A stretch of 18,221 nt of DNA from Nanobdellota archaeon (GTDB lineage Archaea > Nanobdellota > Nanobdellia > Pacearchaeales > GW2011-AR1). Location: NCBI GenBank assembly GCA_022563455.1, contig JADFNI010000020.1, positions 1 through 18,221 on the forward strand, read 5' to 3'. Shown here one piece after another: positions 3,356 through 17,055 of the stretch; positions within the stretch are counted from its first letter, which is position 1, and each line of letters starts with the position of its first letter. A program made the translations under genes and the position numbers. Below the pieces are notes generated by a model. It searched no databases, was not told the DNA's origin, and was given only the letters and a program-made list of their open reading frames with translations.

Positions 3356-3374
3356 TGACAAAGAAACAATCCCC

Positions 3375-3382
3375 AATATAAA
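3375..3382 (-). promoter_or_regulatory. TATA-like box (TTTATATT) 20-27 nt upstream of the ATG at 3355
   Basis: Read on the minus strand in the 35-nt spacer after the stop of the 371-aa gene. No SD-like purine run lies at a suitable distance. The geometry is similar to four other gene starts in the window. The AT-rich background makes chance matches likely. Confidence 0.3.
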
Positions 3383-3390
3383 AACGTTAC

Positions 3391-4506
3391 TTATCTTCGA
3401 AGTCGCTTATATCTTTTAATAAAAAGAATAATTCTAAAAATTATTCCTAAAATAACAACTAAAATAAGAAAAGTAAGAAAATAAGAAAAGTAATCTATAC
3501 CATGATGTATTTCTAAATTAACATTCTCTGTTGTAACTAAATCCCTATAATGAATAATAATTTCTGCAAAAACCTCATCTTCTTTAATTCCATTTGTATC
3601 AAAAAAACCTTTAAGAGTCACAGTCTTCCAAGCACCAAGAGAAGCAGTTGACGTTATAAAAGAAGCTTCTGGGTAATTAGCAATATTAACTTCAGCATAT
3701 ACACTTTCAATAACATTATTCCAAATTGAAACAATTTCCACATTAAATTCGGAAATTTTACCCCCTTCAAAACTTCTACTATAATTATTTATCAAAACTT
3801 TAAGTTCTCCAAGTTTAAATAAAGTATCTGCCCGAGAAACTAATCCTTCCCCATATTCAGAAAGTCCAGTGGCAACATATTCTCCACCGATATATCCAGA
3901 GGTATCAAGCACTCCAGAATAATCTTTAGTCTCATAAGGAGAAATTTGCTCATTTCTAAAAACTATTTTATCTACCTTTTTCAAATCTTTAAAAATCTGA
4001 ACTTGAGACTTCAAAATAACAGACTCATTCCCCCGATTAATCGCCCTAAGTGTAATTCTAACCTCTTCTCCAACATTAGCATTAGAAGCAGTAACTTCTA
4101 AATCAATATATTTTCCAGAATAAGGAACTTCAACTTTAATAATTCCCCAAACGTCCCAAGCAATTCCAACACCCCCCTCAATATTATCAGAAATTTTCTT
4201 AGCACCAATTCTAATTCTACTAAGCCCAGGAGTTTCCAATGCCTCTGCACCTACCTCAAGTTTTGCAACAACACTCCCACTTCCAAAAAGAACCTTTTTA
4301 TCAAGAGTAATATATTCAGACAGTGGTCCATCAACATAAAGTTCAGATTCACTTCCCTCGTCAAATGTAAAATCAAAAATATATTCCTCATCAAGACCAT
4401 CCACAAAATCTACTTCATAACTTCCAGGACTAACGCCAGAGAGTGCACTAACACTCCCCACAAGAATTACCACTAAAAATAAAAATATAACAAATCCCCT
4501 TTTCAT
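3391..4506 (-). CDS. Membrane-anchored surface protein with N-terminal Ig-like domain and two CARDB-like beta-sandwich repeats; paralogue of the 13638..14852 gene (371 aa)
   Basis: Signal peptide MKRGFVIFLFLVVILVGSVSALSG. The C-terminal TM is YFLTFLILVVILGIIFRIILFI followed by KRYKRLRR. It aligns by eye with the 404-aa protein: VSALSGVSPGSYEVDF vs VSALGVTPARTTIDF, LSEYITL vs LAEYIQI, and VPYSGKYIDL vs VPFPGKYANADL. Segments like VGEEVRITLRAINRGNESV...GEYVA fit the CARDB pattern. Confidence 0.8.
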   Translation of the reverse strand: MKRGFVIFLFLVVILVGSVSALSGVSPGSYEVDFVDGLDEEYIFDFTFDEGSESELYVDGPLSEYITLDKKVLFGSGSVVAKLEVGAEALETPGLSRIRIGAKKISDNIEGGVGIAWDVWGIIKVEVPYSGKYIDLEVTASNANVGEEVRITLRAINRGNESVILKSQVQIFKDLKKVDKIVFRNEQISPYETKDYSGVLDTSGYIGGEYVATGLSEYGEGLVSRADTLFKLGELKVLINNYSRSFEGGKISEFNVEIVSIWNNVIESVYAEVNIANYPEASFITSTASLGAWKTVTLKGFFDTNGIKEDEVFAEIIIHYRDLVTTENVNLEIHHGIDYFSYFLTFLILVVILGIIFRIILFIKRYKRLRR

Positions 4507-4566: not shown

Positions 4567-4716
4567 TCACTTCAACAATTTTTTAAAGTTTTTATCTAAA
4601 TTTTCTTTCAATATATTTTCCAATTCCTTATTCACCTTCACACCTTTTAATTTACAATAAGCTACAAACTTTCTCCATAATTCTTCATCAAGATCTTTAA
4701 TTAATTTATGTCCCAT
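4567..4716 (-). CDS. Unlisted 49-aa ORF, putative ribbon-helix-helix (Arc/CopG-like) DNA-binding protein
   Basis: My own translation of the minus strand gives MGHKLIKDLDEELWRKFVAYCKLKGVKVNKELENILKENLDKNFKKLLK followed by a TGA stop (4567-4569). The ATG at 4714-4716 lies inside the last codons of the 1741-aa gene (16-nt overlap). It shows the RHH pattern: a short N-terminal beta-strand (KLIKDL), then helix DEELWRKFVAYCKLKG, a turn, and helix NKELENILKENL. It is below the length cutoff of the ORF track. Confidence 0.55.
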   Translation of the reverse strand: MGHKLIKDLDEELWRKFVAYCKLKGVKVNKELENILKENLDKNFKKLLK

Positions 4717-7700
4717 TTCTTCCAGACCTTAAATTTAATTCCAACAAAAACAAAGATAATAATTAAAGCAACAATGATCCAAATAATCCCTAACGTCCAT
4801 TTCTTCTTTTCTCCCTCAATTATCTCCTCTTCATCCAATCCACCAATCCCACCACCCGTAACATTCCCACTTGTTTCAACATTTCCCTTACCCTCAGGAA
4901 TCTCTTCATGAATACTCTTAATTGTTAGATTGGCCTTTTCATTTTCAATTGAATTCAACAAAACATAAATATCATAAAAGCTGTCATTCAAAACATCTAA
5001 TTTTGCATCCTCACCAACACTCAATATTATTTGAATAGGATCACTTGTGATATTTATTGTCGCTGTTGTATCAGTCAAATCGATAATACCTACATAATGA
5101 ATTTCATCACTAACAGAAATCTTGATCCTTTGCTTTTTACTTAATTCTTTAACATATCCTTGTTCTTGTTTGAATTCCTCATCACTAACAACAAAAGTAT
5201 TACTCCAAAAACTAGGTGTTCCAGAAGGACTTCCATCGCCACTGTCTCCAGAAGGAGCAGTTACAGGAGCAGTTACAGTAAAACTTCTAGAACTTGAATT
5301 TCCTAAATTAAGCAAAGCATCTGTACAATTAACATTCCAAGTATAAGTTGCGGGAGTAAATGTTTGTGTAAAGTTTTGGTTTACATCCTTAGTTATTGAA
5401 GAATTTGTTAAACTTATACTTCCATCAATAATTAAACTACAATTAGTTATATCAGAAACATCTGTAACATTATAAGAAAAAATAATTTCCTGTGAATTTG
5501 ATGTATAGCTTTGGCTGTTTGCAGGACTTATCAGAGTTACATTCGGAGAATCAAAATCAGAAGTAATGTTGATAAAAAATACTGTGGAGTTCAAATTTCC
5601 TAGAGTATCATTTACAGAAATATTTAGCCAGTAAATAGTCATTGTGGATAAGTTTGTTATGTTAGTTATCAATCCTGTTTGTGAAACATTAAACACACTC
5701 GTATCATTTAATGAATATGTATCTATTTCGACTGCTGAATCTGTTGCAGTAAAGTTTTGTGAAAAGGAATCATTAATATTAACTGTAAAATTTCTTGGAT
5801 TGTCAAATACAGGAGAAGTAGTATCAATAGTGAATAAAGTTAAGTTTTGCCCTTCATTTCCAGCTGAATCATTTGCCCAAATAGTTACGTTATGCAATCC
5901 TTCACTCCAGGTTAAAGTTGTGATGTTTATCCCGCACGAGATTGAAGTATTGACAGAATAAGTATCATTAGAATACCAACAAGAATCTAAGAAAGTATCT
6001 GTTGCAGTATAATTTATATCTAATCCAGTATCAGTTGTGTTTGTATGGTTCAATGTTAACATGTTCACCACAGGAATTGTAATATCAATCGTAAAATCAA
6101 TACTTGAAGAATTTTCATTCCCTACTGAATCATTTGCCCACACAGTTATATTATGAAAGCCCTCACTCCAGGTTAAAGTTGTTATATTTGTTCCACAAGT
6201 AATTGTAGTATTAACAGAATAAGTATCGTTTGAATACCAGCAAGAATCTAATCCTACCAAGGAATCTGAAACAGTATAATTTATATCCAATCCAGTATCC
6301 GAAGAGTTAGCATTATTAACAGGACTTACAATCGAAACATTAGGAGGAGTAGTGTCAATTGTGAATGTCCTTATGCTGGAATTTTGGACGTTTGTTTCAT
6401 TGTCTGTTGCTTCTATTCTCCAAATATATGTTCCATCGCCAAAACCAGTAAGGTCTTTTGTGAATATATATTCAGAATTATTTAACCCGCTTGTATTCGT
6501 TTCATTTATCACAAAACTTCCAGTCCAATCTCCCCATAAACTAACATTAGTCAAATTAGAATTATCTGAAACAGTTGTATTAAATGTAATTGAATAAGAA
6601 CTAAAGTTAGCATTATCGACGGGAGAATTCAAAGTTACATTTGGTCTCTCAAGGTCAGCAGAAGTCGTGAAGCTCTGAACAGTAGAAAAATTCCCCGCCT
6701 TCAGCCCAGTGTCAATCGTCTGAACACTCCAATAATATGTCGTTGAAGGCTCAAGCCTATCTACTTTTAAAGTGAAGTTCTTCCGTTGCATCATGTTTCC
6801 AAAGTAGCCAAATGCAGTTCCACCCCTCGTAGCATCTCCACTTCCCCCATAAATTCCAGAAATAATTGAATGATTATTTGATGCTGTTCCTAACTTCAAA
6901 TTATAATACAAACCATTTACTGAAGTTTCATTATCACTTCCGTTAAGCCACCCTAAAGACATTTCTCTATTGTTGTAAGAACTTGAAAAACTCGTTGGAG
7001 GTGTTGGCGCAACATTGGGTGTTGTAATATTATTTATATAAACTTTTTGGCTTTTTATTGAAACTAAATCCAAATCTCCATCATTGTCTATATCTCCCCA
7101 AAGTACAGAACCTTTTCTTACTCCTGTTAAATTTGCTTCAGCTGTTCCATCTCTTGCAAAAACTGAACCATTATTTTCTCCAATTTCTATTTGGTCATCT
7201 CCAGCATTAATTAAATCTAAATAACCATTATTGTCATAATCCCCCATCATCATGGAACCCCATCCAATATTACTAAGGTCAAAATTCCATGATGATGATT
7301 CATCCACAAATTGATCTACGCTACTTATTTTATTTATGAAATATCTTGGAATTGATGTCCCAGAAACAATTTGATCCAAATCACCATCATTATCAATATC
7401 TCCCCATACAACGTTGGCTTCATCTTTGGGGCCGATAGTCCAATTTGGATAACGCACAAAAGCAGTCCCATTATTTTTATAACTATAGGAAGTACTTGCC
7501 CCATGTACATTTAAATCCAAATCACCATCATTGTCTAGATCTATCAAACCCGTTGAAATTTTGCCTCCACTATCAATCTCATCACTCCAGATTAAATCCC
7601 CTACAAAACTTGTTCCGTTATTAATATAAACAGATGCCTTGGTAGATCCCATATCAGGAAATAATATATCCAAATCTCCATCGCCATCTATATCTCCTAG

Positions 7701-9926
7701 TGCAACTGAATCAGAACCAACATCATCCAATACACCTTCATTTTGCCATGTTAGATTCTCTAAAAAAGTTGTTCCATTATTAATATAAACTCCAAAATTA
7801 ATTCCAACACCCCCTCCGGCAAATATCATGTCTAAATCACCATCGTTATCTATATCCCCAAGAGCAATAGAACCTGTGCCTACTCCCGATAAATTCTGCT
7901 CCCAAGTTATATTTTCAACAAAAGAAGTCCCATTATTGATCCAAACATAACTTTTATCTGCAACAGAGCATACGGAAGAACCAGAATCACAACCAATACT
8001 AATCATATCCAAATCTCCATCGCCATCTATATCCCCTAGTACAGCCCCATTATGATAATTAGAGGCTGTTAGATTACTCTGCCATTGCGGACTTTCAATC
8101 AAACCCACAATTAAATCTGTAGTAAAAGTCCTAGTGCTTGAATTTTGACAATTGGTAGAATTATCGCAAGCTTCTATGTACCACTGGAACGATTGTTTCC
8201 TGTTTATTGTTTCTGTAAATATGTAATAAGTATTATTTAATCCAGAAGTGTTTATTTGTTTTCTACTCCAAACTCCATCTTTCCAATCCCCCCATAAACT
8301 AACATTAGTCAAATTCAAGTTATCCGAAACAGTAACATTAAACGTGACTGTATATGAACTCAAGTTCGCATTATCTACGGGAGAATTCAAAGTTACATTT
8401 GGTCTATCTAAATCCGCTGAAGTTGTAAAACTTTGAGCCGTTGACCAGTTTCCAGCTTTTAGCCCAGTATCAATCGTCTGAACACTCCAATAATATGTTG
8501 TACTTGGTTTCAGTCTATCAACTTTTAAAGTAAAATTCTTTCTCTGCATCATGTTTCCAAAATATCCAAATGCTGTTCCTCCACGTGTAGCATCTCCACT
8601 CCCTCCATAAATTCCACTTATGATACTATGATTATTTGATGCTGTTCCTAACTTCAAATTATAATACAAACCATTTACTGAAGTTTCATTATCACTTCCA
8701 TTAAGCCACCCCAAAGCCATTTCCCTATTGTTGTAAGAACTTGAAAAACTCGTTGGGGGTGTTGGCGCAACATTGGGTGTTGTAATATTATTTATATAAA
8801 CTTTTTGGCTTTTTATTGAAACTAAATCCAAATCTCCATCATTGTCTATATCTCCCCAAAGTACAGAACCTTTTCTTACTCCTGTTAAATTTGCTTCAGC
8901 TGTTACATCTCTTACAAAAGTTGTTCCGTTATTTTCTCCGATTTGTATTTGATCGCTTCCACTCAATCCTGCATTTACTAAATCCAAATAGCCATTATTA
9001 TCATAATCTCCCAGCATCATAGAACCCCATATAATAAAAGACATTTCTGTTTCCCAAGGAGATCCATCTAAAAATGTACTCCCATTATTTACTAAAACTC
9101 TAAAACGAGATCCCCTAGATACAACATTATCAAAATCGCCATCATTCTCAAGATCTCCCCATGCTACATTTACTTCATCACCACCTGAGGCAGTCCAAGT
9201 AGGGGTGTAAATAAAACTCGTTCCATTATTAATATAAGTTTTAGCAGAGTCTACTCCTGCTATATTCAAATCCAAATCTCCATCATTATCAAAATCTATT
9301 AATCCTGTTGAAATTTTACCACCTCCATTTGTAATCTCTTGACCCCATATTGTACTATTTACAAAAGTTGTGCCATTGTTAATCCAAACCACCCTATTTG
9401 GAATTCCCATATCAGGAAATAATAAATCTAAATCCCCGTCTCCATCTATATCCCCAAAAGTAATAGATTTAGAATCTGCAAGAGTAGTTGAATTCATTAA
9501 CAAACTTTCCCAAGTTAAATTTTCCTGAAATGAAGTTCCATTATTAATATAAATTCTAGTTCCAATCCAAGAAAGTGCCAAATCTAAATCTCCATCATTG
9601 TCTATATCACCCAATGCTATGGATCCTGCCGCATTTGACAAATTTTGTTCCCATGTTATATTTTCCACAAAACTAGTTCCATTATTAATCCAAACATAAC
9701 TTTTATCAGCATCACTTGAAGTACAAACACTTTCAGTACACCCGATACTAATCATATCTAGATCTCCATCTCCATCCACATCTCCAAGAACTGCAGAATT
9801 AGCACTAACTGAACCTGTTAAATTCCCTTGCCAAGTTTCATTCTCAATCAATCCAACATTACTAGCACTAACAAACCAAAAAAACATTAAACAAAATACC
9901 AAACAAATCAACAAACTCTTTTTCAT
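4701..9926 (-). CDS. Giant (1741 aa) anchored adhesin-like protein: signal peptide, 2 x [seven-bladed FG-GAP/VCBS propeller + FN3-like + Ig-like], further Ig-like modules, membrane-proximal beta-domain, C-terminal TM
   Basis: Signal peptide MKKSLLICLVFCLMFFWFVSAS. I count 14 Ca-binding-type motifs (e.g. GDIDNDGDLDL, GDVDGDGDLDM, GDYDNNGYLDL) arranged 7+7. FN3-like segments end in STTYYWSVQTIDTGLKAGN. Repeated modules start P-N-V-[ST]-L-x-SP-x-N. The C-terminus is WTLGIIWIIVALIIIFVFVGI followed by KFKVWKKW. N-X-S/T sequons are dense throughout. Confidence 0.9.
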   Translation of the reverse strand: MKKSLLICLVFCLMFFWFVSASNVGLIENETWQGNLTGSVSANSAVLGDVDGDGDLDMISIGCTESVCTSSDADKSYVWINNGTSFVENITWEQNLSNAAGSIALGDIDNDGDLDLALSWIGTRIYINNGTSFQENLTWESLLMNSTTLADSKSITFGDIDGDGDLDLLFPDMGIPNRVVWINNGTTFVNSTIWGQEITNGGGKISTGLIDFDNDGDLDLNIAGVDSAKTYINNGTSFIYTPTWTASGGDEVNVAWGDLENDGDFDNVVSRGSRFRVLVNNGSTFLDGSPWETEMSFIIWGSMMLGDYDNNGYLDLVNAGLSGSDQIQIGENNGTTFVRDVTAEANLTGVRKGSVLWGDIDNDGDLDLVSIKSQKVYINNITTPNVAPTPPTSFSSSYNNREMALGWLNGSDNETSVNGLYYNLKLGTASNNHSIISGIYGGSGDATRGGTAFGYFGNMMQRKNFTLKVDRLKPSTTYYWSVQTIDTGLKAGNWSTAQSFTTSADLDRPNVTLNSPVDNANLSSYTVTFNVTVSDNLNLTNVSLWGDWKDGVWSRKQINTSGLNNTYYIFTETINRKQSFQWYIEACDNSTNCQNSSTRTFTTDLIVGLIESPQWQSNLTASNYHNGAVLGDIDGDGDLDMISIGCDSGSSVCSVADKSYVWINNGTSFVENITWEQNLSGVGTGSIALGDIDNDGDLDMIFAGGGVGINFGVYINNGTTFLENLTWQNEGVLDDVGSDSVALGDIDGDGDLDILFPDMGSTKASVYINNGTSFVGDLIWSDEIDSGGKISTGLIDLDNDGDLDLNVHGASTSYSYKNNGTAFVRYPNWTIGPKDEANVVWGDIDNDGDLDQIVSGTSIPRYFINKISSVDQFVDESSSWNFDLSNIGWGSMMMGDYDNNGYLDLINAGDDQIEIGENNGSVFARDGTAEANLTGVRKGSVLWGDIDNDGDLDLVSIKSQKVYINNITTPNVAPTPPTSFSSSYNNREMSLGWLNGSDNETSVNGLYYNLKLGTASNNHSIISGIYGGSGDATRGGTAFGYFGNMMQRKNFTLKVDRLEPSTTYYWSVQTIDTGLKAGNFSTVQSFTTSADLERPNVTLNSPVDNANFSSYSITFNTTVSDNSNLTNVSLWGDWTGSFVINETNTSGLNNSEYIFTKDLTGFGDGTYIWRIEATDNETNVQNSSIRTFTIDTTPPNVSIVSPVNNANSSDTGLDINYTVSDSLVGLDSCWYSNDTYSVNTTITCGTNITTLTWSEGFHNITVWANDSVGNENSSSIDFTIDITIPVVNMLTLNHTNTTDTGLDINYTATDTFLDSCWYSNDTYSVNTSISCGINITTLTWSEGLHNVTIWANDSAGNEGQNLTLFTIDTTSPVFDNPRNFTVNINDSFSQNFTATDSAVEIDTYSLNDTSVFNVSQTGLITNITNLSTMTIYWLNISVNDTLGNLNSTVFFINITSDFDSPNVTLISPANSQSYTSNSQEIIFSYNVTDVSDITNCSLIIDGSISLTNSSITKDVNQNFTQTFTPATYTWNVNCTDALLNLGNSSSRSFTVTAPVTAPSGDSGDGSPSGTPSFWSNTFVVSDEEFKQEQGYVKELSKKQRIKISVSDEIHYVGIIDLTDTTATINITSDPIQIILSVGEDAKLDVLNDSFYDIYVLLNSIENEKANLTIKSIHEEIPEGKGNVETSGNVTGGGIGGLDEEEIIEGEKKKWTLGIIWIIVALIIIFVFVGIKFKVWKKWDIN
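5825..6353 (-). repeat. Two tandem ~261-bp (about 87-aa) Ig-like modules inside the giant gene
   Basis: CACTCCAGGTTAAAGTTG occurs at 5903 and 6164 (offset 261). The proteins are DTGLDINYTVSDSLVGLDSCWYSNDTYSVNTTITCGTNITTLTWSEGFHNITVWANDSVGNE and DTGLDINYTATDTFLDSCWYSNDTYSVNTSISCGINITTLTWSEGLHNVTIWANDSAGNE. Confidence 0.85.
6347..9863 (-). repeat. Intragenic tandem duplication, 2 x 1758 bp (586 aa: propeller + FN3-like + Ig-like)
   Basis: GTTGGCGCAACATTGGGTG occurs at 7003 and 8761 (offset 1758, in frame). The two protein halves are collinear. DNA identity is patchy: 6871-7146 vs 8629-8904 differ at only 5 of 276 positions by my hand alignment, while flanking segments differ at many mostly synonymous sites. 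Confidence 0.9.
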
Positions 9927-9947
9927 ACTTCATCAACGAGAAATTCC

Positions 9948-9955
9948 TTTTTATA
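9948..9955 (-). promoter_or_regulatory. TATA box-like TATAAAAA 22-29 nt upstream of the ATG at 9926
   Basis: Minus strand reads TAATTATAAAAAGGAATTTCTCGTTGATGAAGTATG, immediately after the TAA of the upstream gene. No SD is present. Confidence 0.4.
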
Positions 9956-9956
9956 A

Positions 9957-11222
9957 TTAATGCCCTACCAACTTCAATTTTGTCTTAGACCTATTGAAAA
10001 CTACAACAATTAGAGTTATACAAAGCATTGTAAACATTAAAACTAATTGATTCCCGGACAATATATTACTTCCAATCCCCAACACCGCTCCAGTTATTCC
10101 CGCCGTTGAGGGAAATATTTCTCCTAATTTATTCAAATTGATGGAAGGGTCGTCATTTTGTTCTTCCACTTTTACTTGCCCTATATTTTCTTGTCCATAG
10201 TTTGTCCAGGTTACTTCCCCATCTACAATAGGATCTATTTCAATACTTCTTGTTATATTATAATTCCCATCTGCTAAACTAGGTCTTAAATCAACAGTGA
10301 ATGTTACAGTTCCATTATTTGGTCCTAGAGTTTCTGCAACCAAAGGCAGACAATAAGGAGATTCTGCTCTATTTGTGCCTGTTCCTTTATCCTGATTGTA
10401 ACATTGAGTTTTATTAACATCTGTAAACCAGAAAAACATTCTTAGAGGTAATAATTCTCCACTAGCATAACCTGCTTTGAAAGGTATATCGATGGTATAG
10501 TTTAAAGTAATGTTAGATGTGCTGTTTAAAGTATTACTAATAAAAGTTTCCTGAGTTATAACGCCAGTATCTGTTCTAGAAATTCTTTTCCAAGTATTAT
10601 TCCATAAATCATAAGCATCACAATTTCCATTTATAACACAGTCATATAATTCTTCAAGCCAGCCGTGTTCTTCAGGTGTTAAAGAATCTTCTGCTTGCAT
10701 AGAAATTTCAATTGTTTTATCACTATCCGCAACAATATTTTGTGTTTTATCAAAATACCCTATTAGGTCTGAAAAAGTACATTCCCATGTCCCTGCAGCA
10801 AAACTATCAGCAGGAATTGAAGTATAAGGATTTTCAACATTTGCATCACTAAAACCATTATCACAAGAAACATCAAAACTTTTTTGACCACTTGTGTCTA
10901 TCTGCAACCCACCAAAACTATCAGTCAAATTGAAAGTAATCGTCCAATTAGCATACTGAAACTGCCTTGTTACAGACCAATCACTGGCTAAGACAGAATC
11001 ATTCGCCCTTACACGCCAGTAATAATCATCATCTGTTGTTGTGTAATCTGAAAGAGTAATATTGATTGAGGTGGGATCTGTTCCTTCTGCTATTGAAGTA
11101 TTACTATGAACTAAGTTTGCTGCTGCCATGTCACTTTCATTATAAATTTCTAAATCATAAGTTATAGTATCTCCATCAATATCTATAGAATTATTCCATG
11201 AAAAAGTTATTGTTGAATTCAT
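9957..11222 (-). CDS. C-terminal portion of a split surface protein: FN3-like module, beta-rich domains, C-terminal TM anchor. Lacks its own signal peptide (421 aa as tracked)
   Basis: It begins mid-module (MNSTITFSWNNSIDIDGDTITYDLEIY...DYYWRVRANDSVLASDWS). The reading frame stays open for 18 more codons upstream (APPTIPVLSAPANNSNFA), up to the TAA at 11277-11279 that ends the 442-aa ORF in the same frame. The C-terminus is LVLMFTMLCITLIVVVF followed by NRSKTKLKLVGH. Confidence 0.7.
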   Translation of the reverse strand: MNSTITFSWNNSIDIDGDTITYDLEIYNESDMAAANLVHSNTSIAEGTDPTSINITLSDYTTTDDDYYWRVRANDSVLASDWSVTRQFQYANWTITFNLTDSFGGLQIDTSGQKSFDVSCDNGFSDANVENPYTSIPADSFAAGTWECTFSDLIGYFDKTQNIVADSDKTIEISMQAEDSLTPEEHGWLEELYDCVINGNCDAYDLWNNTWKRISRTDTGVITQETFISNTLNSTSNITLNYTIDIPFKAGYASGELLPLRMFFWFTDVNKTQCYNQDKGTGTNRAESPYCLPLVAETLGPNNGTVTFTVDLRPSLADGNYNITRSIEIDPIVDGEVTWTNYGQENIGQVKVEEQNDDPSINLNKLGEIFPSTAGITGAVLGIGSNILSGNQLVLMFTMLCITLIVVVFNRSKTKLKLVGH

Positions 11223-11276
11223 TGCAAAATTTGAATTGTTTGCAGGAGCTGATAGTACTGGGATTGTTGGAGGGGC

Positions 11277-12605
11277 TTAAAAAACATCTCTATAAGTTAT
11301 TCCTTCCCCGCAGTTATACAAATCGCTAATCTCTGAAGTCGTTAAACTTCTATTCCAAAATCCAACTTCATCCAAACTTCCATCAAAAAACCTATTAATT
11401 GTCCCAGCAAAATTAAAGGCTCCAAGAGTTAAAGAATCCCCAAGAGTAATAAAATTGCTAGGAGTTGATTGAGCTGCATAATCTGTAGTATATAAAATCC
11501 CATCCACATGAAAAGTTATATTATTATCAGCAGGAGTCATTGTCACAGCAACATGATGCCAATTACCATCTCTCCAAGTATTGTTTGGTGCTCCAAAGTC
11601 TCCTGACAGACCATTTCCGCTTCCGTCCCAGTAAAAAAACATTATTGTTCCGTTTTCATGTCCTGTTGTTTTTTGAGCATTTAAGAATATCCCCATCCTA
11701 GGATTTCCCCCACTTACTTCTTTTCCCCATGGTGTTGGTTGTGTTCCTGCCTCTTGAATTGTATTTAACCAAAAACTAATAGTAAATCCAGAACCAATAT
11801 CTGTTCCAATATCTAACATATCTGTTAAATTCACATAATCTGAATCTCCTGCTGTAAAATTAAAAGAAGCATTTATGATTCCTGTTTGTCCCCTTGCTGC
11901 TCCATTATTGGAACCAGTAATATTTCCTGTAGCATCTATGACATTTCCAGAAGTTCCATTTAATCTATAATATGCTATTATGTCTGTATTCATACTCTCA
12001 GTCCATTCTGCCCATTCGTTAACTTCAACGCCCAATAAAGTTGGAACCCATTCAACTCTTTCATTAGGTAACACATCTGTAAAAATTCCAATAATTGTTT
12101 TGCCAGAAGGGATAGTCCCAAGAGAGTTTAAATCATTCCATTCAAACATTTCTTCTTGATGCGTTCCTATTAAAACTTGTGAGCAGTCTCGTAAAATTGT
12201 CCCATTACTTGAAATTTCCCCATCAACACAAACCGTTTTATAATCATTCACTGTTTCAAATCCTAAACTATTTCTATATTTATAATTAAATTGTCTATCA
12301 AATCTTTTCATACTATTTTTAACATCATAAAAATCAAGTTTCTCTAAAACAGAAGAAATTGGTTGAGAAGAAAGTTTATTATCTATTGTAAATTCTGCAA
12401 CTTTCCTGTCTTTTCCACGTATAACATTAAAGACCAAAGGAGTATTAAGTGTTATATCTGAAATAACATTTCCAGATGAATCTTTAATTGTAACAACTTT
12501 ATTGACGCTGTCATATTCTTTTGTATTATGCGTTGCAGCAGATAAAAAGAAAAACGTACTAATTAATATAAAAACAAAAAATATAATAATTAAACTCTTT
12601 TTCAT
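11277..12605 (-). CDS. Secreted LamG/concanavalin-A-like lectin domain protein (442 aa); probably the N-terminal half of a longer anchored protein
   Basis: Signal peptide MKKSLIIIFFVFILISTFFFLSA. The C-terminal ~230 aa fit the Laminin_G_3 pattern (FTISFWLN...WHHVAVTM...FFDGSLDEVGFWNRSLTTSEISDLYN). It has no C-terminal anchor, unlike its neighbours. Confidence 0.85.
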   Translation of the reverse strand: MKKSLIIIFFVFILISTFFFLSAATHNTKEYDSVNKVVTIKDSSGNVISDITLNTPLVFNVIRGKDRKVAEFTIDNKLSSQPISSVLEKLDFYDVKNSMKRFDRQFNYKYRNSLGFETVNDYKTVCVDGEISSNGTILRDCSQVLIGTHQEEMFEWNDLNSLGTIPSGKTIIGIFTDVLPNERVEWVPTLLGVEVNEWAEWTESMNTDIIAYYRLNGTSGNVIDATGNITGSNNGAARGQTGIINASFNFTAGDSDYVNLTDMLDIGTDIGSGFTISFWLNTIQEAGTQPTPWGKEVSGGNPRMGIFLNAQKTTGHENGTIMFFYWDGSGNGLSGDFGAPNNTWRDGNWHHVAVTMTPADNNITFHVDGILYTTDYAAQSTPSNFITLGDSLTLGAFNFAGTINRFFDGSLDEVGFWNRSLTTSEISDLYNCGEGITYRDVF

Positions 12606-12747: not shown

Positions 12748-12819
12748 ATCCAATCACTAAATCTCAAGCAGCTTCACCATAGGATCCAATCACTAAATCT
12801 TAAGCAGCCTCACCATAAG
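12748..12819. repeat. Tandem 36-bp direct repeat (33/36 identical) spanning the stop codon of the 202-aa gene
   Basis: 12748-12783 is ATCCAATCACTAAATCTCAAGCAGCTTCACCATAGG and 12784-12819 is ATCCAATCACTAAATCTTAAGCAGCCTCACCATAAG. On the coding strand each copy reads YGEAA-stop-DLVIG. The stops are TAA and then TGA, and the copies are in frame with each other. Confidence 0.9.
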
Positions 12820-13408
12820 ATATAGAGATAGTATCACTAAGTACTCCAATATTAGAATTATTAGGAATAATTAACGATAAATCTATAGTTATATTCTGTA
12901 AAGATTCAAAAACATCACATACTCTTTGGGAATCTGGAGAAGCATTAACTTCATAAAAAGTATCCAAACTAAAACCGCTAGGAGGAGAACAAATGTCTTT
13001 TCCACCGTCAGACACATTATACCTATATCCTGGAGAGCTCCCCCCAATAAAAGAACTAGCTGTTTTTCCAGAACTAACATTAATAGTTAAATTTTCATTC
13101 CCAAGATTGGTTATTAAAAAACGAGTAGTAGTAGCACTCCAATTCCCATTAATAACACTTCCAAGAGTGTCAATTGTAGCCGATACTTGTCCAAGATTAA
13201 CTGAGCCAGAACCAAAATTTATAGTGTCATCAGTAAAATTTAATAAAACCAGTGAAGAAATACTCAAATTAACAAACCCACTGTCAACCGCTTTTCCAGT
13301 AAACAAAATTTTATATTCTCCAATAGAGTTAAGTGCAAAAACCAAAGAGACTACTGAAAACAAAAACAGAGCCGTAGATCCAAGAACAAAATAATCATCC
13401 CGCTCCAT
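12800..13408 (-). CDS. Secreted beta-sandwich protein (202 aa) homologous to the C-terminal domain of the 550-aa protein; fimbrial/Ig-like signature
   Basis: I prefer the ATG at 13406-13408, which is preceded by GAGAGGGGTGAAA (SD-like); the track starts at a TTG. Signal/anchor FVLGSTALFLFSVVSLVFALNS. By eye it aligns to the 550-aa C-terminus: NFTDDTINFGSGSV vs VTDSMNFGLLAPSGS, RFLITNLGNENLTINVSSG vs PFVIRNDGTVMTNISINAS, and ITIDLSLIIPNNSNIGVLSDTISISY vs AEIDISILVPSNEGPGAKSSTIIFTS. Confidence 0.75.
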   Translation of the reverse strand: MERDDYFVLGSTALFLFSVVSLVFALNSIGEYKILFTGKAVDSGFVNLSISSLVLLNFTDDTINFGSGSVNLGQVSATIDTLGSVINGNWSATTTRFLITNLGNENLTINVSSGKTASSFIGGSSPGYRYNVSDGGKDICSPPSGFSLDTFYEVNASPDSQRVCDVFESLQNITIDLSLIIPNNSNIGVLSDTISISYGEAA

Positions 13409-13604
13409 TTTCACCCCTCTCAGTATATGGGACAATTTCTAAACTAATCTTCCCAACACTGTTAGCATTAGTCCCGCCGAAGTTTTCATTTCCATCATAA
13501 GATTCTCGAGCACTAGAAAGTGTAGACTCAATTGCAAAAGAAAAAAGCAACATCACAATCGCAACAACTAAAAAAATTACTGCAAGCCTCTGTTTTCTAT
13601 TCAT
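13395..13604 (-). CDS. Small (69 aa) single-pass membrane/secreted protein
   Basis: I prefer the ATG at 13602-13604, with GGAGGT 10 nt upstream; the track's TTG start lies inside that SD. MNRKQRLAVIFLVVAIVMLLFSFAIES is a hydrophobic helix after a basic N-terminus. The 3' end overlaps the next gene by 14 nt. Confidence 0.6.
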   Translation of the reverse strand: MNRKQRLAVIFLVVAIVMLLFSFAIESTLSSARESYDGNENFGGTNANSVGKISLEIVPYTERGENGAG

Positions 13605-13625
13605 CTCAAAAAAAACCTCCAAAAC

Positions 13626-13633
13626 TATATAAA
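13626..13633 (-). promoter_or_regulatory. TATA-like TTTATATA 22-29 nt upstream of the ATG at 13604
   Basis: It lies in the 33-nt spacer after the TGA of the 404-aa gene. The spacing matches the other candidate boxes, but an SD is also present here, so this may be coincidental. Confidence 0.25.
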
Positions 13634-13637
13634 TTCA

Positions 13638-14852
13638 TCATTTAAACCTCTTCCTAAGTTTAAGGAACCATAAAAGATTGATCAACACAAGTAAAACGAC
13701 GACAATTATAAGAACAACAATAATTGTATCAAGTTCTTCTCCAGAACCACTGTCCGAAATAACATATCCAAGACCAATAATTGTTAAGTCATTTTCACTT
13801 ACCTCGAATCGTAAATTATTATTACTTACTTTTCCAGCATAATTAATTGTCACATCAGCCTCGTAAGTTCCTTCCTTTACTCCAGCAGTATCCCAATAAG
13901 AAACAAAAACTTTTTTAGAAAGTGCTGCCACCTCATAACTTACAGACTCAAATGCCGAAACAATAATCCCATCATCATCCTTTATTTTTGTTTCTATGTA
14001 TGCTCCACTAATAGGTTCACTCCATTTATTTTCCACAAGCATCTCAAGCTTTGCAATCTCTCCAAGGCTAAAATCAGAAACTCTTATACTTTCAAGCTCA
14101 AGTTCCAAACTACCAACGCTAAATATCTTTTCTAAATTAATTGTTCCTTCATCATAAACAAGACTAGCAACAGCTCTGTACTCTCCGATTGCAACATCTG
14201 CCACCCAGTCATAAACAATTTCTCTCTTTTCACCAGAAGGAACCTCAATTGTACCAGTATTAAAAGAGCCAACAACTTCATCAAGCTTATTAAATATTTC
14301 AACATTTGCCCATACACTTGTTAAATCAAATTCCCCAGCACTAACAATAGGAAACACAAACCGAACAGCTTCTCCTTGATTAGCATTATAAATAATAAGG
14401 TCAGCATTTGCATATTTTCCAGGAAAAGGAACATAAACATAAATTTGAGTAACAACTGCAAGAGTCGCAAAAACTTGAGCCCCCGAAGATCCACTAGAAC
14501 TTGGCACTTGTAAAATAATTACTTCCCCAATATGAAGTCCAGGTTCCAAGTCCCCTGGTAAATTAAGAGTATAACTAAATTCTCTAGTTTTTATGTCTGA
14601 AGGAATTGAAGATTTCGATTCAGATATTTGAATATATTCTGCTAATTCTCCATCTGGAACCATAACAATATCTATATCTTTTTTATCCGAGTTAATAACT
14701 TCAAACTTAACTTCTCGCTCAAGGCCTGGCTCAAAGTCAATTGTCGTCCTAGCTGGAGTTACCCCAAGAGCACTAACACCTGACATCAATATAAGCATAA
14801 GAAATCCAAATCCAAAAATAAATAATTTTTTATTATTCATTTTATTATTCAT
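13638..14852 (-). CDS. Membrane-anchored surface protein with N-terminal Ig-like domain and CARDB-like repeats (404 aa); paralogue of 3391..4506
   Basis: I prefer the ATG at 14850-14852 (MNNKMNNKKLFIFGFGFLMLILMSGVSALG), with GGGAGG 7 nt upstream; it overlaps the stop of the upstream gene (ATGAATAA). The C-terminal TM is TIIVVLIIVVVLLVLINLLWFL followed by KLRKRFK. CARDB-like segments include GEIAKLEMLVENKWSEPISG...WDTAGVKEGTYEADVTINY. Confidence 0.85.
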   Translation of the reverse strand: MNNKMNNKKLFIFGFGFLMLILMSGVSALGVTPARTTIDFEPGLEREVKFEVINSDKKDIDIVMVPDGELAEYIQISESKSSIPSDIKTREFSYTLNLPGDLEPGLHIGEVIILQVPSSSGSSGAQVFATLAVVTQIYVYVPFPGKYANADLIIYNANQGEAVRFVFPIVSAGEFDLTSVWANVEIFNKLDEVVGSFNTGTIEVPSGEKREIVYDWVADVAIGEYRAVASLVYDEGTINLEKIFSVGSLELELESIRVSDFSLGEIAKLEMLVENKWSEPISGAYIETKIKDDDGIIVSAFESVSYEVAALSKKVFVSYWDTAGVKEGTYEADVTINYAGKVSNNNLRFEVSENDLTIIGLGYVISDSGSGEELDTIIVVLIIVVVLLVLINLLWFLKLRKRFK

Positions 14853-15333
14853 CTGACTGCCTCCCAACAAAACCAGTTCCATTTACTTCTCCTTCAATTA
14901 AAAGTTTAACAGTTTCAACCAAACTCGTTCCATTATAAACTTCAACATCAAGTACAACATTCCCAACATTAACAACGCTAAATTCATTAGAGGAATTTTC
15001 CCTAAGTCTAAGTTCTAAATTAACAACCGACTTAATAGTCAATGTCCTGATCTGGCTACTAGTAATCCCTACAGCCTTCCAGTAATATTTCCCAGGATCT
15101 AAATCAATCTTCAATCCATCCCTCATTAAATATTCTTGAGGACTACTAAATTCTATATTATCATCAATCAATAAAAATTCCGCTTTCTCAATTGAAAACA
15201 AAATCTCTGTCTCAGTTGTCTCAAGTTCATTCAATGGAGCAATGACAAGAGGTTGTACATAACCCCCAACAGCAAAAAGACTAAGAACAGTAATGACAAT
15301 TATTGCCGCATCAATCTTATAAATTTTATCCAA
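14845..15333 (-). CDS. N-terminally anchored/secreted beta-rich protein (~162 aa)
   Basis: The track ORF 14845..15432 overlaps the 550-aa gene by ~100 nt. I propose the TTG at 15331-15333, which overlaps that gene's TAA (ATTGGATAA) and has GAGGT 9 nt upstream. This gives MDKIYKIDAAIIVITVLSLFAVGGYV as signal/anchor. The body contains a module LIDDNIEFSSPQEYLMRDGLKIDLDPGKYYWKAVG. The exact start is uncertain. Confidence 0.6.
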   Translation of the reverse strand: MDKIYKIDAAIIVITVLSLFAVGGYVQPLVIAPLNELETTETEILFSIEKAEFLLIDDNIEFSSPQEYLMRDGLKIDLDPGKYYWKAVGITSSQIRTLTIKSVVNLELRLRENSSNEFSVVNVGNVVLDVEVYNGTSLVETVKLLIEGEVNGTGFVGRQSDE

Positions 15334-16978
15334 TTTCCGCCAACCTCGATGTAAATATAATAGTAGAACTCTTAGCTCCAGGACCCTCATTACTAGGAAC
15401 CAAAATAGATATATCAATTTCTGCAGAATCACTACTATCCGTATAATTTAATTCACTAATAGCGACAACGTCTCCAGTAATTGGAACATTGAAAAATTGT
15501 ATAATTGAATTAATCCAATTAAAAGAGTTTGGTTCGCTTGATACATTATCTACCTTAAATTGAAAAGAACTACTATTTTCAGATTGCGTAGTCCAAAGAG
15601 CACTAGCATTAATACTTATATTAGTCATAACAGTCCCATCATTTCTAATTACAAATGGTGATGGATTCTCATTAGTAGTATCATTCGATCCACTAGGTGC
15701 AAGCAAGCCAAAGTTCATAGAATCTGTAACAAGAGTGATTGTCGTATCTGCAGTAATATTAACTATAAAGTCTTCACTCCATGCCCCAAATCCGACAGAA
15801 TCATTAGCCCTAACTCTCCAAGTATAATAATATCCATTATCATGCAAACACAAAAGATCAACCGTTGGAACAAAACTAGTCCCCGTTAACAGTTCAAGTA
15901 AAGAGTCCGAGCAAATTTGTGATCCACTAAATTTATAATCAGTTATATTAATCTGATAATGTGAAACGTCAGAATCAGCATCTACCACAGACCAATTGAA
16001 TTCAGGAGTCCTATTTATAGTAGAAGATACATTAGCAGGACTAAGTAATGTAATAACTGGAAGCTGATTAAGGACAGATAAACTACTAGAATTCGCATAA
16101 GGTGTAGTATCTTGCTCATCAGTAAATCTAGCTTCACAAGTCCAATTCTCATAACGAGTAGTATTTCCAGACTCAAGAATTGCCAAAAGATTAGTTCCGT
16201 TAGTTTGAGAACTATAGTTAACACTTAAATTAAACGAATCGTTCAAATACCAATTAACTGTAACATTCAAAGCATCCCCGTCAGGGTCATCAATCAAAAT
16301 ATCACAAATTAAATTCTCTGAAGAAATATTTGCTCCACTAGATGTATTCAAGAAAGGCTGAGGCGTATTTGGAATTGTATTAAACTCTTCACTAGAATAA
16401 GTAGTAAAATGTGTAACATTAAATTTGTAAACATTAGTTACATTATCCCAAGATATATCCATACAAAGGTTAGCTGGACAGTCAACAAAAGTCCCATTAT
16501 CAAAATAATCTACAATAGATTCAGCAACAACTGGAGTTATAAGATCATTAAGAGTAATATTTGCAGTCGTATTAAAACCAATATCTTTAGTTGAATTAAT
16601 AAACACATTATTATCTGTTATTTGAATAACCTCAGACAAGTTAGATCCAGATGCGACAAGAGAACTATTAATAAATTCAACGGCTCCATAAGAATTATTT
16701 ATAACAAGACTGTTTTCACTAAAGTCGTAATTATAAATGGTCGAATTATATAAAAGATAATCAAGGTTAGCCCCCGTAATATTAATTCTTGAAAAGTTTA
16801 TCTCTTCTGAATTATTTATGAAAATAGAAATATTAGAAAATCCAGTAATATTAATATCCTTAAAAGTAACATTGCTAGAAATATTAGAAGAATCAGCACC
16901 AAGATCTATAACATAATCTGAATTTGAATCTATAGTTATATTTTCAAATAGACTATCAGTCATACCTTGAATGAACAA
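15326..16978 (-). CDS. Surface protein fragment: parallel beta-helix (PbH1-like) repeats, DGD-containing beta-sandwich, FN3-like module, C-terminal fimbrial/Ig-like domain. The 5' end appears truncated
   Basis: The tracked start is a TTG with no signal peptide. The frame stays open upstream to 17080, and coding-like sequence (LNIKSTINISLTNASKN) runs to ~17025 with no ATG. Beta-helix-type repeats include NITIDSNSDYVIDLG, NVTFKDINITGFSNISIFINNS and INFSRINITGAN. The FN3-like module is LLSPANVSSTINRTPEFNWSVVDADSDVSHYQINI...YYYTWRVRANDSVGFGAWS. Confidence 0.75.
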   Translation of the reverse strand: MFIQGMTDSLFENITIDSNSDYVIDLGADSSNISSNVTFKDINITGFSNISIFINNSEEINFSRINITGANLDYLLYNSTIYNYDFSENSLVINNSYGAVEFINSSLVASGSNLSEVIQITDNNVFINSTKDIGFNTTANITLNDLITPVVAESIVDYFDNGTFVDCPANLCMDISWDNVTNVYKFNVTHFTTYSSEEFNTIPNTPQPFLNTSSGANISSENLICDILIDDPDGDALNVTVNWYLNDSFNLSVNYSSQTNGTNLLAILESGNTTRYENWTCEARFTDEQDTTPYANSSSLSVLNQLPVITLLSPANVSSTINRTPEFNWSVVDADSDVSHYQINITDYKFSGSQICSDSLLELLTGTSFVPTVDLLCLHDNGYYYTWRVRANDSVGFGAWSEDFIVNITADTTITLVTDSMNFGLLAPSGSNDTTNENPSPFVIRNDGTVMTNISINASALWTTQSENSSSFQFKVDNVSSEPNSFNWINSIIQFFNVPITGDVVAISELNYTDSSDSAEIDISILVPSNEGPGAKSSTIIFTSRLAEIG

Positions 16979-17030
16979 ATTTTTCGAGGCATTTGTTAAA
17001 CTAATATTAATAGTACTTTTTATATTTAAC

Positions 17031-17055
17031 CCTCGTAAATCGAGGTTTTTTTTTT
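17031..17055 (+). terminator. Hairpin (CCTCG-TAAAT-CGAGG) followed by T10: intrinsic-terminator-like element on the plus strand
   Basis: Read directly. The stem is only 5 bp, but it is followed immediately by ten T. No plus-strand gene lies upstream of it in this window. It sits exactly where the minus-strand surface-protein ORF loses coding character. Confidence 0.35.

Follow-up and report, generated by a model that had tools for sequence, protein, structure and literature searches.

On the evidence of gene content and gene order, the five-gene cassette at positions 12800-16978 of contig JADFNI010000020.1, from a Nanobdellota archaeon, is the core of a conserved DPANN operon that constitutes a surface-protein module. 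The window referred to below is the whole 18,221-nt stretch of this contig that was analysed, and all coordinates are positions within it. The cassette genes are designated A to E, their conserved companions elsewhere in the window are C' and F, and X denotes the large proteins encoded upstream of B, a place occupied by A in this contig. From sequence comparison, structure models and analogy we tentatively propose, with slightly less than even confidence, that the operon builds a membrane-anchored docking platform similar to that of the WxL clusters, on which large, variable and glycosylated adhesins would be held by beta-strand complementation. What is new here is a proposed surface complex of the WxL/Csc type in DPANN archaea, with a link to strand-complementation assemblies, in a set of genes for which the database names are all 'hypothetical protein'.

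Every long open reading frame (ORF) between 12800 and 16978 lies on the minus strand, and the genes follow one another by overlapping stop and start codons or across a short spacer (Table 1). The first-pass annotation of this DNA had described a tightly coupled group of five genes, and the ORFs, their junctions and their lengths all agree with that description. The genes are real, but in relatives the supposed five-gene unit is part of a longer operon. The coupling of D and E suggests a 1:1 stoichiometry of their products. A scan for promoters and terminators with a sigma-70 model gave counts equal to the shuffled expectation, this model being uninformative for an archaeon. Scans of A to E, C' and F against Pfam and NCBIfam returned no match above threshold, and searches of PDB sequences, with single proteins and with family profiles, returned no meaningful match (best E-values 0.5-2, all to unrelated proteins).

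Table 1. Positions of the cassette genes, their domains and other features of the window (SD, Shine-Dalgarno sequence).
Feature	Position	Strand	Description
Gene A	15326-16978	(-)	550 aa; TTG start; no signal peptide
Gene B	14845-15333	(-)	162 aa; TTG start overlapping the A stop; SD GAGGT
Gene C	13638-14852	(-)	404 aa; ATG overlapping the B end; SD GGGAGG
Gene D	13395-13604	(-)	69 aa; after a 33-nt spacer; SD GGAGG
Gene E	12800-13408	(-)	202 aa; ATG overlapping the D stop
Gene C'	3391-4506	(-)	371 aa; paralogue of C; directly after E in relatives
Gene F	1325-3376	(-)	683 aa; follows C' in relatives
fn3-like penultimate domain of A	15779-16051	(-)	'..YYYTWRVRANDS..WSEDFIVNIT'; homologous to the B ectodomain
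E-like beta-sandwich domain of A, extreme C-terminus	15338-15778	(-)	putative anchoring/docking domain
Conserved strand of D	13431-13454	(-)	'GKISLEIV'; family motif G-x-[VI]-x-L-x-[VI]-E
Three extra surface-protein genes	4701-12605	(-)	442 aa LamG, 421 aa, 1741 aa FG-GAP
Tandem duplication	12748-12821		36 bp, 2.1 copies, 92% match; E 3' end including the stop

The operon was traced with a profile of C, which was run on one genome per species and recovered 80 loci. Almost all of these come from metagenome-assembled genomes of Candidatus Pacearchaeota, Woesearchaeota and Nanoarchaeota/Nanoarchaeia, with one labelled Parvarchaeum; three of the bins bear other labels and are probably mis-binned. 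Hidden Markov models (HMMs) for B, C, D, E and F, applied to all ORFs of 84 non-redundant loci, gave the usual order as X-B-C-D-E-C'-F-F' (F of ~680 aa and F' of ~1300 aa), followed by genes for a MoxR protein and a DUF58/VWA protein. B stands immediately upstream of C in 64 of 79 loci. Two paralogues of C are present in 56 loci, and E lies between them in 45 of these; the interval holds D-E in 31 cases (and variants of it in three more), E alone in 10 (with one variant) and nothing in 11. Both the start/stop overlaps and the gene order are kept across distant DPANN lineages. Conservation of gene order, which the first-pass annotation had left to be checked, therefore holds clearly in the 80 loci. 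In the literature searched, WxL or DUF3324 is nowhere reported from DPANN archaea.

The clearest internal relationship within the operon is that between E and the end of the large proteins. The earlier observation that the 202-aa protein is homologous to the C-terminus of the 550-aa protein is borne out by pairwise alignment of E with A (27% identity over 143 aa, E=0.004), by the match of the E-family HMM to the A C-terminus (1.9e-10) and by profile-profile comparison of E with the C-terminus of X (hhalign; 98.8% probability, E=1.2e-16). The E-X alignment begins at 'SGFVNLSI' of E, which faces the last strand of the fn3-like domain of X. A word-indexed search retrieved only seven homologues of E, and a second search of this kind with the E profile added only further 'hypothetical protein' entries. 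An exhaustive profile search found 1231 clusters (50% identity) at E<=1e-3 and 642 at E<=1e-10, mostly of full-length proteins of ~200 aa, and no Pfam family matched any of 66 diverse members. By these profile matches, E founds a large protein family, of at least that number of clusters, without a Pfam model.

E consists of an N-terminal transmembrane (TM) helix (aa 6-31), a near-invariant 'TG', the strand 'GFVNLSI' and a disulfide-containing, sequon-enriched sandwich (aa 56-200). In its AlphaFold2 (AF2) model, made with 66 homologues and having a predicted local distance difference test score (pLDDT) of 91.5, a helix (4-36) is followed by coil (37-55, pLDDT 60-72) and a beta-sandwich (56-200), and the conserved strand 'GFVNLSI' is unstructured and of lower confidence in this monomer. 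In the family alignment the TM helix is conserved, the Gly of 'x-T-G-x-A' hardly varies, and the strand takes the form 'G-x-V-N-L-T-V'. Two Cys residues are invariant, and further conserved motifs are 'I-N-W-G-S-G', 'G-N-W', 'N-x-G-N-x-N' and the ending 'I-P-x-D-S-x-x-G-x-L-x-D-T-I-T-A-T'. A related pattern, 'TG-x-[AV]-[VT]-(D)' and then a G-x-V-x-L-x-V strand, stands shortly after the N-terminal TM helix of otherwise unrelated surface proteins, with examples at 13259-13300 (E), at 3200-3270 (F) and in large proteins of loci L034 and L003; this 'TG-x-[AV]-[VT]' motif, defined from sequence, may be a lineage-specific signal-processing or sorting motif.

When the E model was compared with the PDB by Foldseek, no match fell below 1e-3. 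The top ranks were taken by donor-strand subunits, namely TLP-1a (3.5e-3) and CsuA/B (5.8e-3 to 9e-3), and FimG, FimF, FimA and CfaB (up to E=0.1) were also ranked, together with major sperm protein. Because a library of viral structures returned unrelated generic beta-sandwiches in the same weak E-value range, the pilin matches weigh less than their rank would suggest, and the pilin likeness of the modelled fold is a weakly supported lead rather than a classification. Thus, of the earlier description of E as 'fimbrial-like', the part that stands is that its top structural neighbours are donor-strand pilins; no SCPU or fimbrial Pfam family was matched by the 66 members, and the structural matches (E ~6e-3 to 0.1) have TM-scores of 0.3-0.5.

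Since profile comparisons connect B and E with the C-terminus of X, we regard B, D and E as membrane-anchored partial or complete copies of the two-domain unit with which X ends. In B, an N-terminal TM helix is followed by an fn3-like domain and then by an E-like domain of which just the first strands are present; B matches the X C-terminus in profile-profile comparison (hhalign; 97.5%, E=8.8e-12); pairwise, B and A show no significant similarity, and the relation is visible with profiles only. In D, represented by 39 distinct sequences, a variable linker (15-25 residues) joins the TM helix to a single conserved strand with a short tail behind it. The idea that such copies are 'silent cassettes' for adhesin variation was rejected, as B and E are conserved, SD-preceded and TM-anchored ORFs across phyla.

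The X proteins, which are large and secreted, have no TM anchor of their own and carry lectin, FG-GAP or beta-helix domains (with Pfam matches to FG-GAP and Laminin_G_3). An E-like domain is detectable in 24 of the 63 proteins encoded upstream of B and lies at the extreme C-terminus in all 24. In every X examined, this domain is preceded by the fn3-like domain, which ends '..YYY-x-W-x-V-R-A..W-S..F-x-V-N-I-T'. Gene A encodes a protein without a C-terminal TM helix, and the 550-aa ORF, correctly measured in the first-pass annotation, is not the full gene. A block of 4229 bp (12784-17012) is 100% identical to three contigs of other assemblies (L004-L006), where A reads on upstream, first through parallel beta-helix repeats and then into the end of a Laminin_G_3 domain, for a length of at least 802 aa. 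Because these identical contigs carry A onward, the ORF in the window is, from this comparison, what remains of such a lectin/beta-helix adhesin gene after 5' truncation. As a separate observation, some X proteins (L034 2731-7908 and L068 2548-8430) start with a basic cytoplasmic motif, 'HKKYTYKDGKKYGPYYYE-x-KR-x-DGK..YLG', before a TM helix, and in these two proteins the 'HKKYTYKDGKKYGPYYYE' motif stands in place of a plain signal peptide.

The most conserved component of the operon is C, in which a signal peptide and three Ig-like domains precede a C-terminal TM helix with a basic tail. Its AF2 model (49 homologues, pLDDT 87) shows three Ig domains, a flexible neck, and the TM helix with its basic tail. 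Hundreds of homologues were found at 55-72% identity, all of them 'hypothetical protein' and labelled as archaeon. The second copy that had been pointed out at 3391-4506 is indeed a paralogue, matching C over its full length (BLASTP, 1e-20). The layout originally assigned to the 404-aa protein is right in its signal peptide, Ig-like domains, TM helix and basic tail, but wrong in its 'CARDB-like repeats', for which there were only weak Big_14/MG2 matches. Furthermore, its suspected likeness to the DUF916/DUF3324 partners of WxL proteins is supported on the DUF3324 side: the Pfam family WxLIP_HBD (DUF3324, PF11797) matches 47 of 49 C-family members at E<=0.1 (best 3.4e-7), Foldseek matches the C model with the solved WxLIP structures of Enterococcus faecium (9i25_C, 'WxLIP bound to long WxL', 2.4e-8; 9i1y_A, 1.2e-7), and hhalign aligns C with genuine WxLIPs over the last Ig domain and TM helix (86% probability, E=5e-6). 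The comparisons with WxL and WxLIP proteins were made on annotated genes from plasmids of Bacillus, Enterococcus, Listeria and Latilactobacillus; the probe peptide with which these genes were fetched served for retrieval only. By its sequence, C is likely a distant homologue of WxLIP, though not a member of that family by curated thresholds.

N-glycosylation sequons set C apart from its neighbours. Per 100 aa, A has 7.3 of them, the FG-GAP protein of the window 5.5, E 4.5 and F 3.4; C and D have none. Across families, the median is 0 for C (expected 0.66) and 4.1 for E (expected 1.8), an approximately twofold enrichment. Because the densities differ in this way, the proteins can be separated, as far as sequons predict, into exposed glycoproteins (X, E and F) and an unglycosylated set (C, C' and D).

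The organization of the operon resembles that of the WxL clusters. These contain a small protein that is a WxL domain only, a large protein in which binding domains at the N-terminus are combined with a WxL domain at the C-terminus, and a WxLIP (DUF916-DUF3324-TM) with a hairpin strand predicted to complete the WxL sandwich (PMC10599100). We took the architecture of the large WxL proteins from this published description; the large proteins beside the fetched Firmicute WxL loci gave no Pfam WxL match at E<=1e-3. The WxL/Csc clusters of Lactobacillales and Bacillales follow the same logic, a small domain-only protein and a large protein ending in the same domain; the binding domains of the large proteins are lectin, pectate-lyase-like or Ig, and the operons also encode an Ig partner with a C-terminal TM helix and basic tail and one or two small membrane- or wall-anchored proteins. 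There are differences, however. C has three Ig domains instead of two and no DUF916 signature, the small partner is LPXTG-anchored in WxL clusters and TM-anchored (B, D) in the archaeal one, and the archaeal locus has two WxLIP-like paralogues in a DPANN host with no peptidoglycan to bind. DPANN archaea are not known to have peptidoglycan, and any anchoring would have to go through membrane proteins. By analogy, the archaeal cluster reproduces the WxL-cluster design with a different anchoring domain, and the two probably have a WxLIP-type scaffold in common.

In the docking platform that we propose, C and C' would act as a membrane-bound scaffold or chaperone, and the anchorless X would be held at the cell surface through its terminal fn3 + E unit. 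The X C-terminus, E, B, D and the N-terminal strand of F would interlock by beta-strand complementation, in a complex expected to have a roughly fixed stoichiometry because the genes are translationally coupled. Adhesins tethered in this way to a cell without peptidoglycan could then mediate attachment, plausibly to host cells.

Several results weigh against this proposal. C itself scores E=0.016 and 15.6 bits against WxLIP_HBD, under the Pfam cut-off of 28.9 bits, and DUF916/PGBD (PF06030) is matched by only one of the 49 C-family members (4.8e-4). The DUF916 motif NQIDKxxxYFDLK is absent from C, hhalign leaves the N-terminal domains of C and the WxLIPs unaligned, and the WxLIP-like signal of C is confined to the last Ig domain and TM helix; Foldseek also scores generic tandem-Ig proteins above WxLIP for C. 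The E-like domain is seen in well under half of the proteins upstream of B. Moreover, a signal anchor may simply be followed by ordinary Ig domains, in which case the conserved N-terminal strands would be no more than the opening strands of these. Finally, we rejected E as a WxL domain: PF13731 (WxL) matched none of the 66 E-family members, hhalign comparison with 10 genuine WxL proteins gave 3-6% probability, over the last strand only and without reaching significance when signal regions were trimmed and the alignment was relaxed, and a dual WxL motif is lacking in E, which has only one Trp.

The same components can be read as a fibre formed by donor-strand exchange (DSE), a reading that we consider unlikely. 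Here E would polymerize head-to-tail through its N-terminal strand after cleavage at 'TG-x-A', X would be the tip (having the acceptor domain only), D the root or terminator at the membrane, and C a membrane-bound PapD-like chaperone. The ranking of donor-strand pilins as the best PDB matches of the E model speaks for it, as do the strand-only membrane protein D and an X that resembles FimH of type 1 pili in joining a binding part to a C-terminal pilin-like domain. CsuA/B and Fim pilins, from the chaperone-usher pili (Csu/SCPU, type 1), are among these structural neighbours, and the final strand of E, 'G-x-L-x-D-T-I-T-A-T', presumably resembles the C-terminal strands of SCPU/fimbrial subunits. 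The N-terminal domain of C is Ig-like, and the top Foldseek matches of C are tandem-Ig proteins of the ciliary central apparatus, which we take to carry ASH/MSP (PapD-like) domains. However, no usher or PapD family was matched in the window, the 80 loci having been screened with the B-F profiles, MoxR and DUF58 only; the host has no outer membrane, and C is membrane-anchored with three domains. The disorder of the E N-terminal strand in the monomer model also fits, since that of TLP-1 is disordered in AF2 monomer models and is nevertheless a donor strand in the fibril, as with other DSE subunits (PMC11494351). TLP-1a/b fibrils (CryoSeek, PDB 9ikj) are the top Foldseek match of E (probability 0.99), but with a TM-score of only 0.34-0.39, and TLP-1 has relatives in Flavobacteriales with ordinary signal peptides and no sequence similarity to the E family. 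Chaperone-free DSE filaments, threads and ABP, do exist in archaea (PMC9715654, PMC9245690): Sulfolobus threads (Saci_0406), Pyrobaculum AbpA (TasA-like) with AbpB/TapA, and cannulae are built from Sec-exported, glycosylated beta-sandwich subunits of ~200 aa, need no ATPase or usher, and have accessory Ig-domain genes next to the subunit gene. Their gene neighbourhood is different, however, and E has a long N-terminal TM helix; moreover, E matched none of these filament proteins in sequence, and its top structural matches include none of them. An identity of E with TasA/AbpA was discarded, as no TasA/Peptidase_M73 (PF12389) match appeared in Pfam or NCBIfam and no PDB sequence matched; TasA/AbpA were likewise absent among the top 50 structural matches of E. 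Against a fibre are the weakness of the fold matches, equalled in E-value by viral beta-sandwiches, and the lack of any pilin Pfam match. Eleven of 56 loci have no D-E between C and C' although the rest of the set (X, B, C, C' and F) is kept, and the coupling of D with E favours a 1:1 complex over a polymer with a single anchor. Furthermore, what aligns in X with the E 'donor' strand belongs to the fn3-like domain, as its last strand, and may be an ordinary in-cis strand, and cleavage of the E TM helix is only putative. The most specific version, in which the locus would encode the first chaperone-assisted DSE appendage of archaea, with an E polymer, a lectin- or integrin-like tip, a D root and the WxLIP-like C as chaperone, serving host attachment in Pace-, Woese- and Nanoarchaeota, we regard as distinctly unlikely; if true, it would mean that WxL clusters and pilus-type strand exchange share an ancient assembly principle across two domains of life.

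Joint assembly, whether as a docking platform or as a fibre, would be unnecessary if the locus were simply an island of the surface proteome, in which Ig glycoproteins (adhesins and S-layer-associated proteins) are co-located and co-transcribed; this too seems unlikely to us. Surface-protein genes on a single strand take up the entire 18-kb contig, most of the proteins own a TM anchor (F, F', the 1741-aa protein and C/C' all do), Ig-like domains are generic, and no enzymatic or assembly machinery is encoded in the window. Such an island would nonetheless leave several things hard to explain, namely the strict gene order and conserved start/stop overlaps across distant lineages, a 69-aa protein of TM helix and strand and a partial-domain protein standing alone, an X without its own anchor yet sharing its terminal domain with E, and a sequon-free C among sequon-rich neighbours. 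Compatible with the docking platform, and in our view improbable as a reading in its own right, is that the cassette supplies the structural or client components of a Bat-like MoxR-DUF58/VWA system, which would mature or insert the surface complex. In locus L001 (17929-19864), F' is followed by genes for MoxR (AAA_3, 1.3e-58) and DUF58/VWA (2.2e-37), and 12 loci have a MoxR AAA+ gene close to the limit of the fetched flanks, ~9.4 kb downstream of C. The loci with this cluster end comprise, besides L001, L003, L016, L018, L022, L023, L029, L040, L047, L065, L081 and L082, and the window ends short of the corresponding point. The first-pass statement that no ATPase is present is hence true inside the window, whereas in relatives MoxR AAA+ and DUF58/VWA close the cluster. 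MoxR is cytoplasmic, however, and we know of no link between it and extracellular proteins; it lies outside the window, many loci are too short to be scored, and MoxR-DUF58-VWA operons are common and perhaps mere neighbours here. Finally, the lollipop shape of the E model, with its helix 4-36 and beta-sandwich head, recalls an archaeal type IV pilin-like subunit whose pilus machinery would be encoded elsewhere, a reading so improbable that we give it almost no weight. The family N-terminus 'M-x-x-D-N-L-L..' has no [KR]-[GAS] class III site before the hydrophobic stretch, and for want of a class III signal peptide we ruled this candidate out. In addition, a 20-residue low-confidence linker separates helix and head, no pilin family was matched, the window contains no type IV pilus genes, and beyond MoxR no ATPase, platform protein or prepilin peptidase turned up in the 80 loci, which were screened only with cluster-protein and MoxR/DUF58 queries.

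The docking platform, if correct, would bear on questions of some breadth. Much of archaeal diversity belongs to the DPANN archaea, the majority of which are believed to live attached to host cells; for the uncultured Pace- and Woesearchaeota, hardly anything is known of the molecules that attach them to hosts or surfaces. By pairing a conserved, unglycosylated Ig/TM scaffold with hypervariable, heavily glycosylated giants of lectin- or integrin-like type, this cluster offers a testable candidate for an attachment apparatus. It would also extend the WxL/WxLIP design, thought to be almost confined to Lactobacillales and Bacillales, to archaea without peptidoglycan, which bears on the role of WxLIP-type proteins. 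Membrane-anchored partial domains such as B and D are unusual and point to strand complementation as the principle of assembly.

The two ends of the identical block also deserve comment. All three matching contigs end at 12784. Upstream of 17012 they differ from the window, where at that point an unrelated gene in divergent orientation takes over. Two origins can account for the junctions at 12784 and 17012: in the population, adhesin genes may be shuffled about a B-E core that stays fixed, or the contig may be a chimeric join. The 12784 ends fall inside the 36-bp tandem duplication (Table 1), which copies the last codons of E ('YGEAA' and a second stop) with synonymous differences, and which by its sequence resembles either the end of a second E allele or the scar of a recombination. 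Beside the 17012 divergence point, a GC-rich hairpin followed by T10 lies at 17031-17055 on the plus strand, between gene A and a divergent 214-aa gene of carboxymuconolactone-decarboxylase-like type.

Three extra surface-protein genes separate E from C' in this contig only; in relatives C' comes directly after E. The largest, encoding the 1741-aa FG-GAP protein (4701-9926), contains a large internal duplication with a repeat spacing of 1758 nt, within which a 300-nt stretch (6524-6823) is 81% identical to 8282-8581. F opens with an N-terminal TM helix and 'TGNVVDSGIIDLFVEG', continues with Ig/cadherin-like domains and a stretch of poly-Gly, and closes with a Cys-rich region and a second, C-terminal TM helix. 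In F-type proteins (1325-3376; L003 5300-7462) the segment between poly-Gly and TM helix carries Cys-rich repeats, 'C-x-DG-x-QN-x-GE-x-x-IDCGG-x-C', which had no Pfam match. The 421-aa ORF (9957-11222) has a C-terminal TM helix and no signal peptide and starts 55 nt past the end of the LamG gene; judging from this arrangement, it may be a C-terminal portion split off from a larger surface protein.

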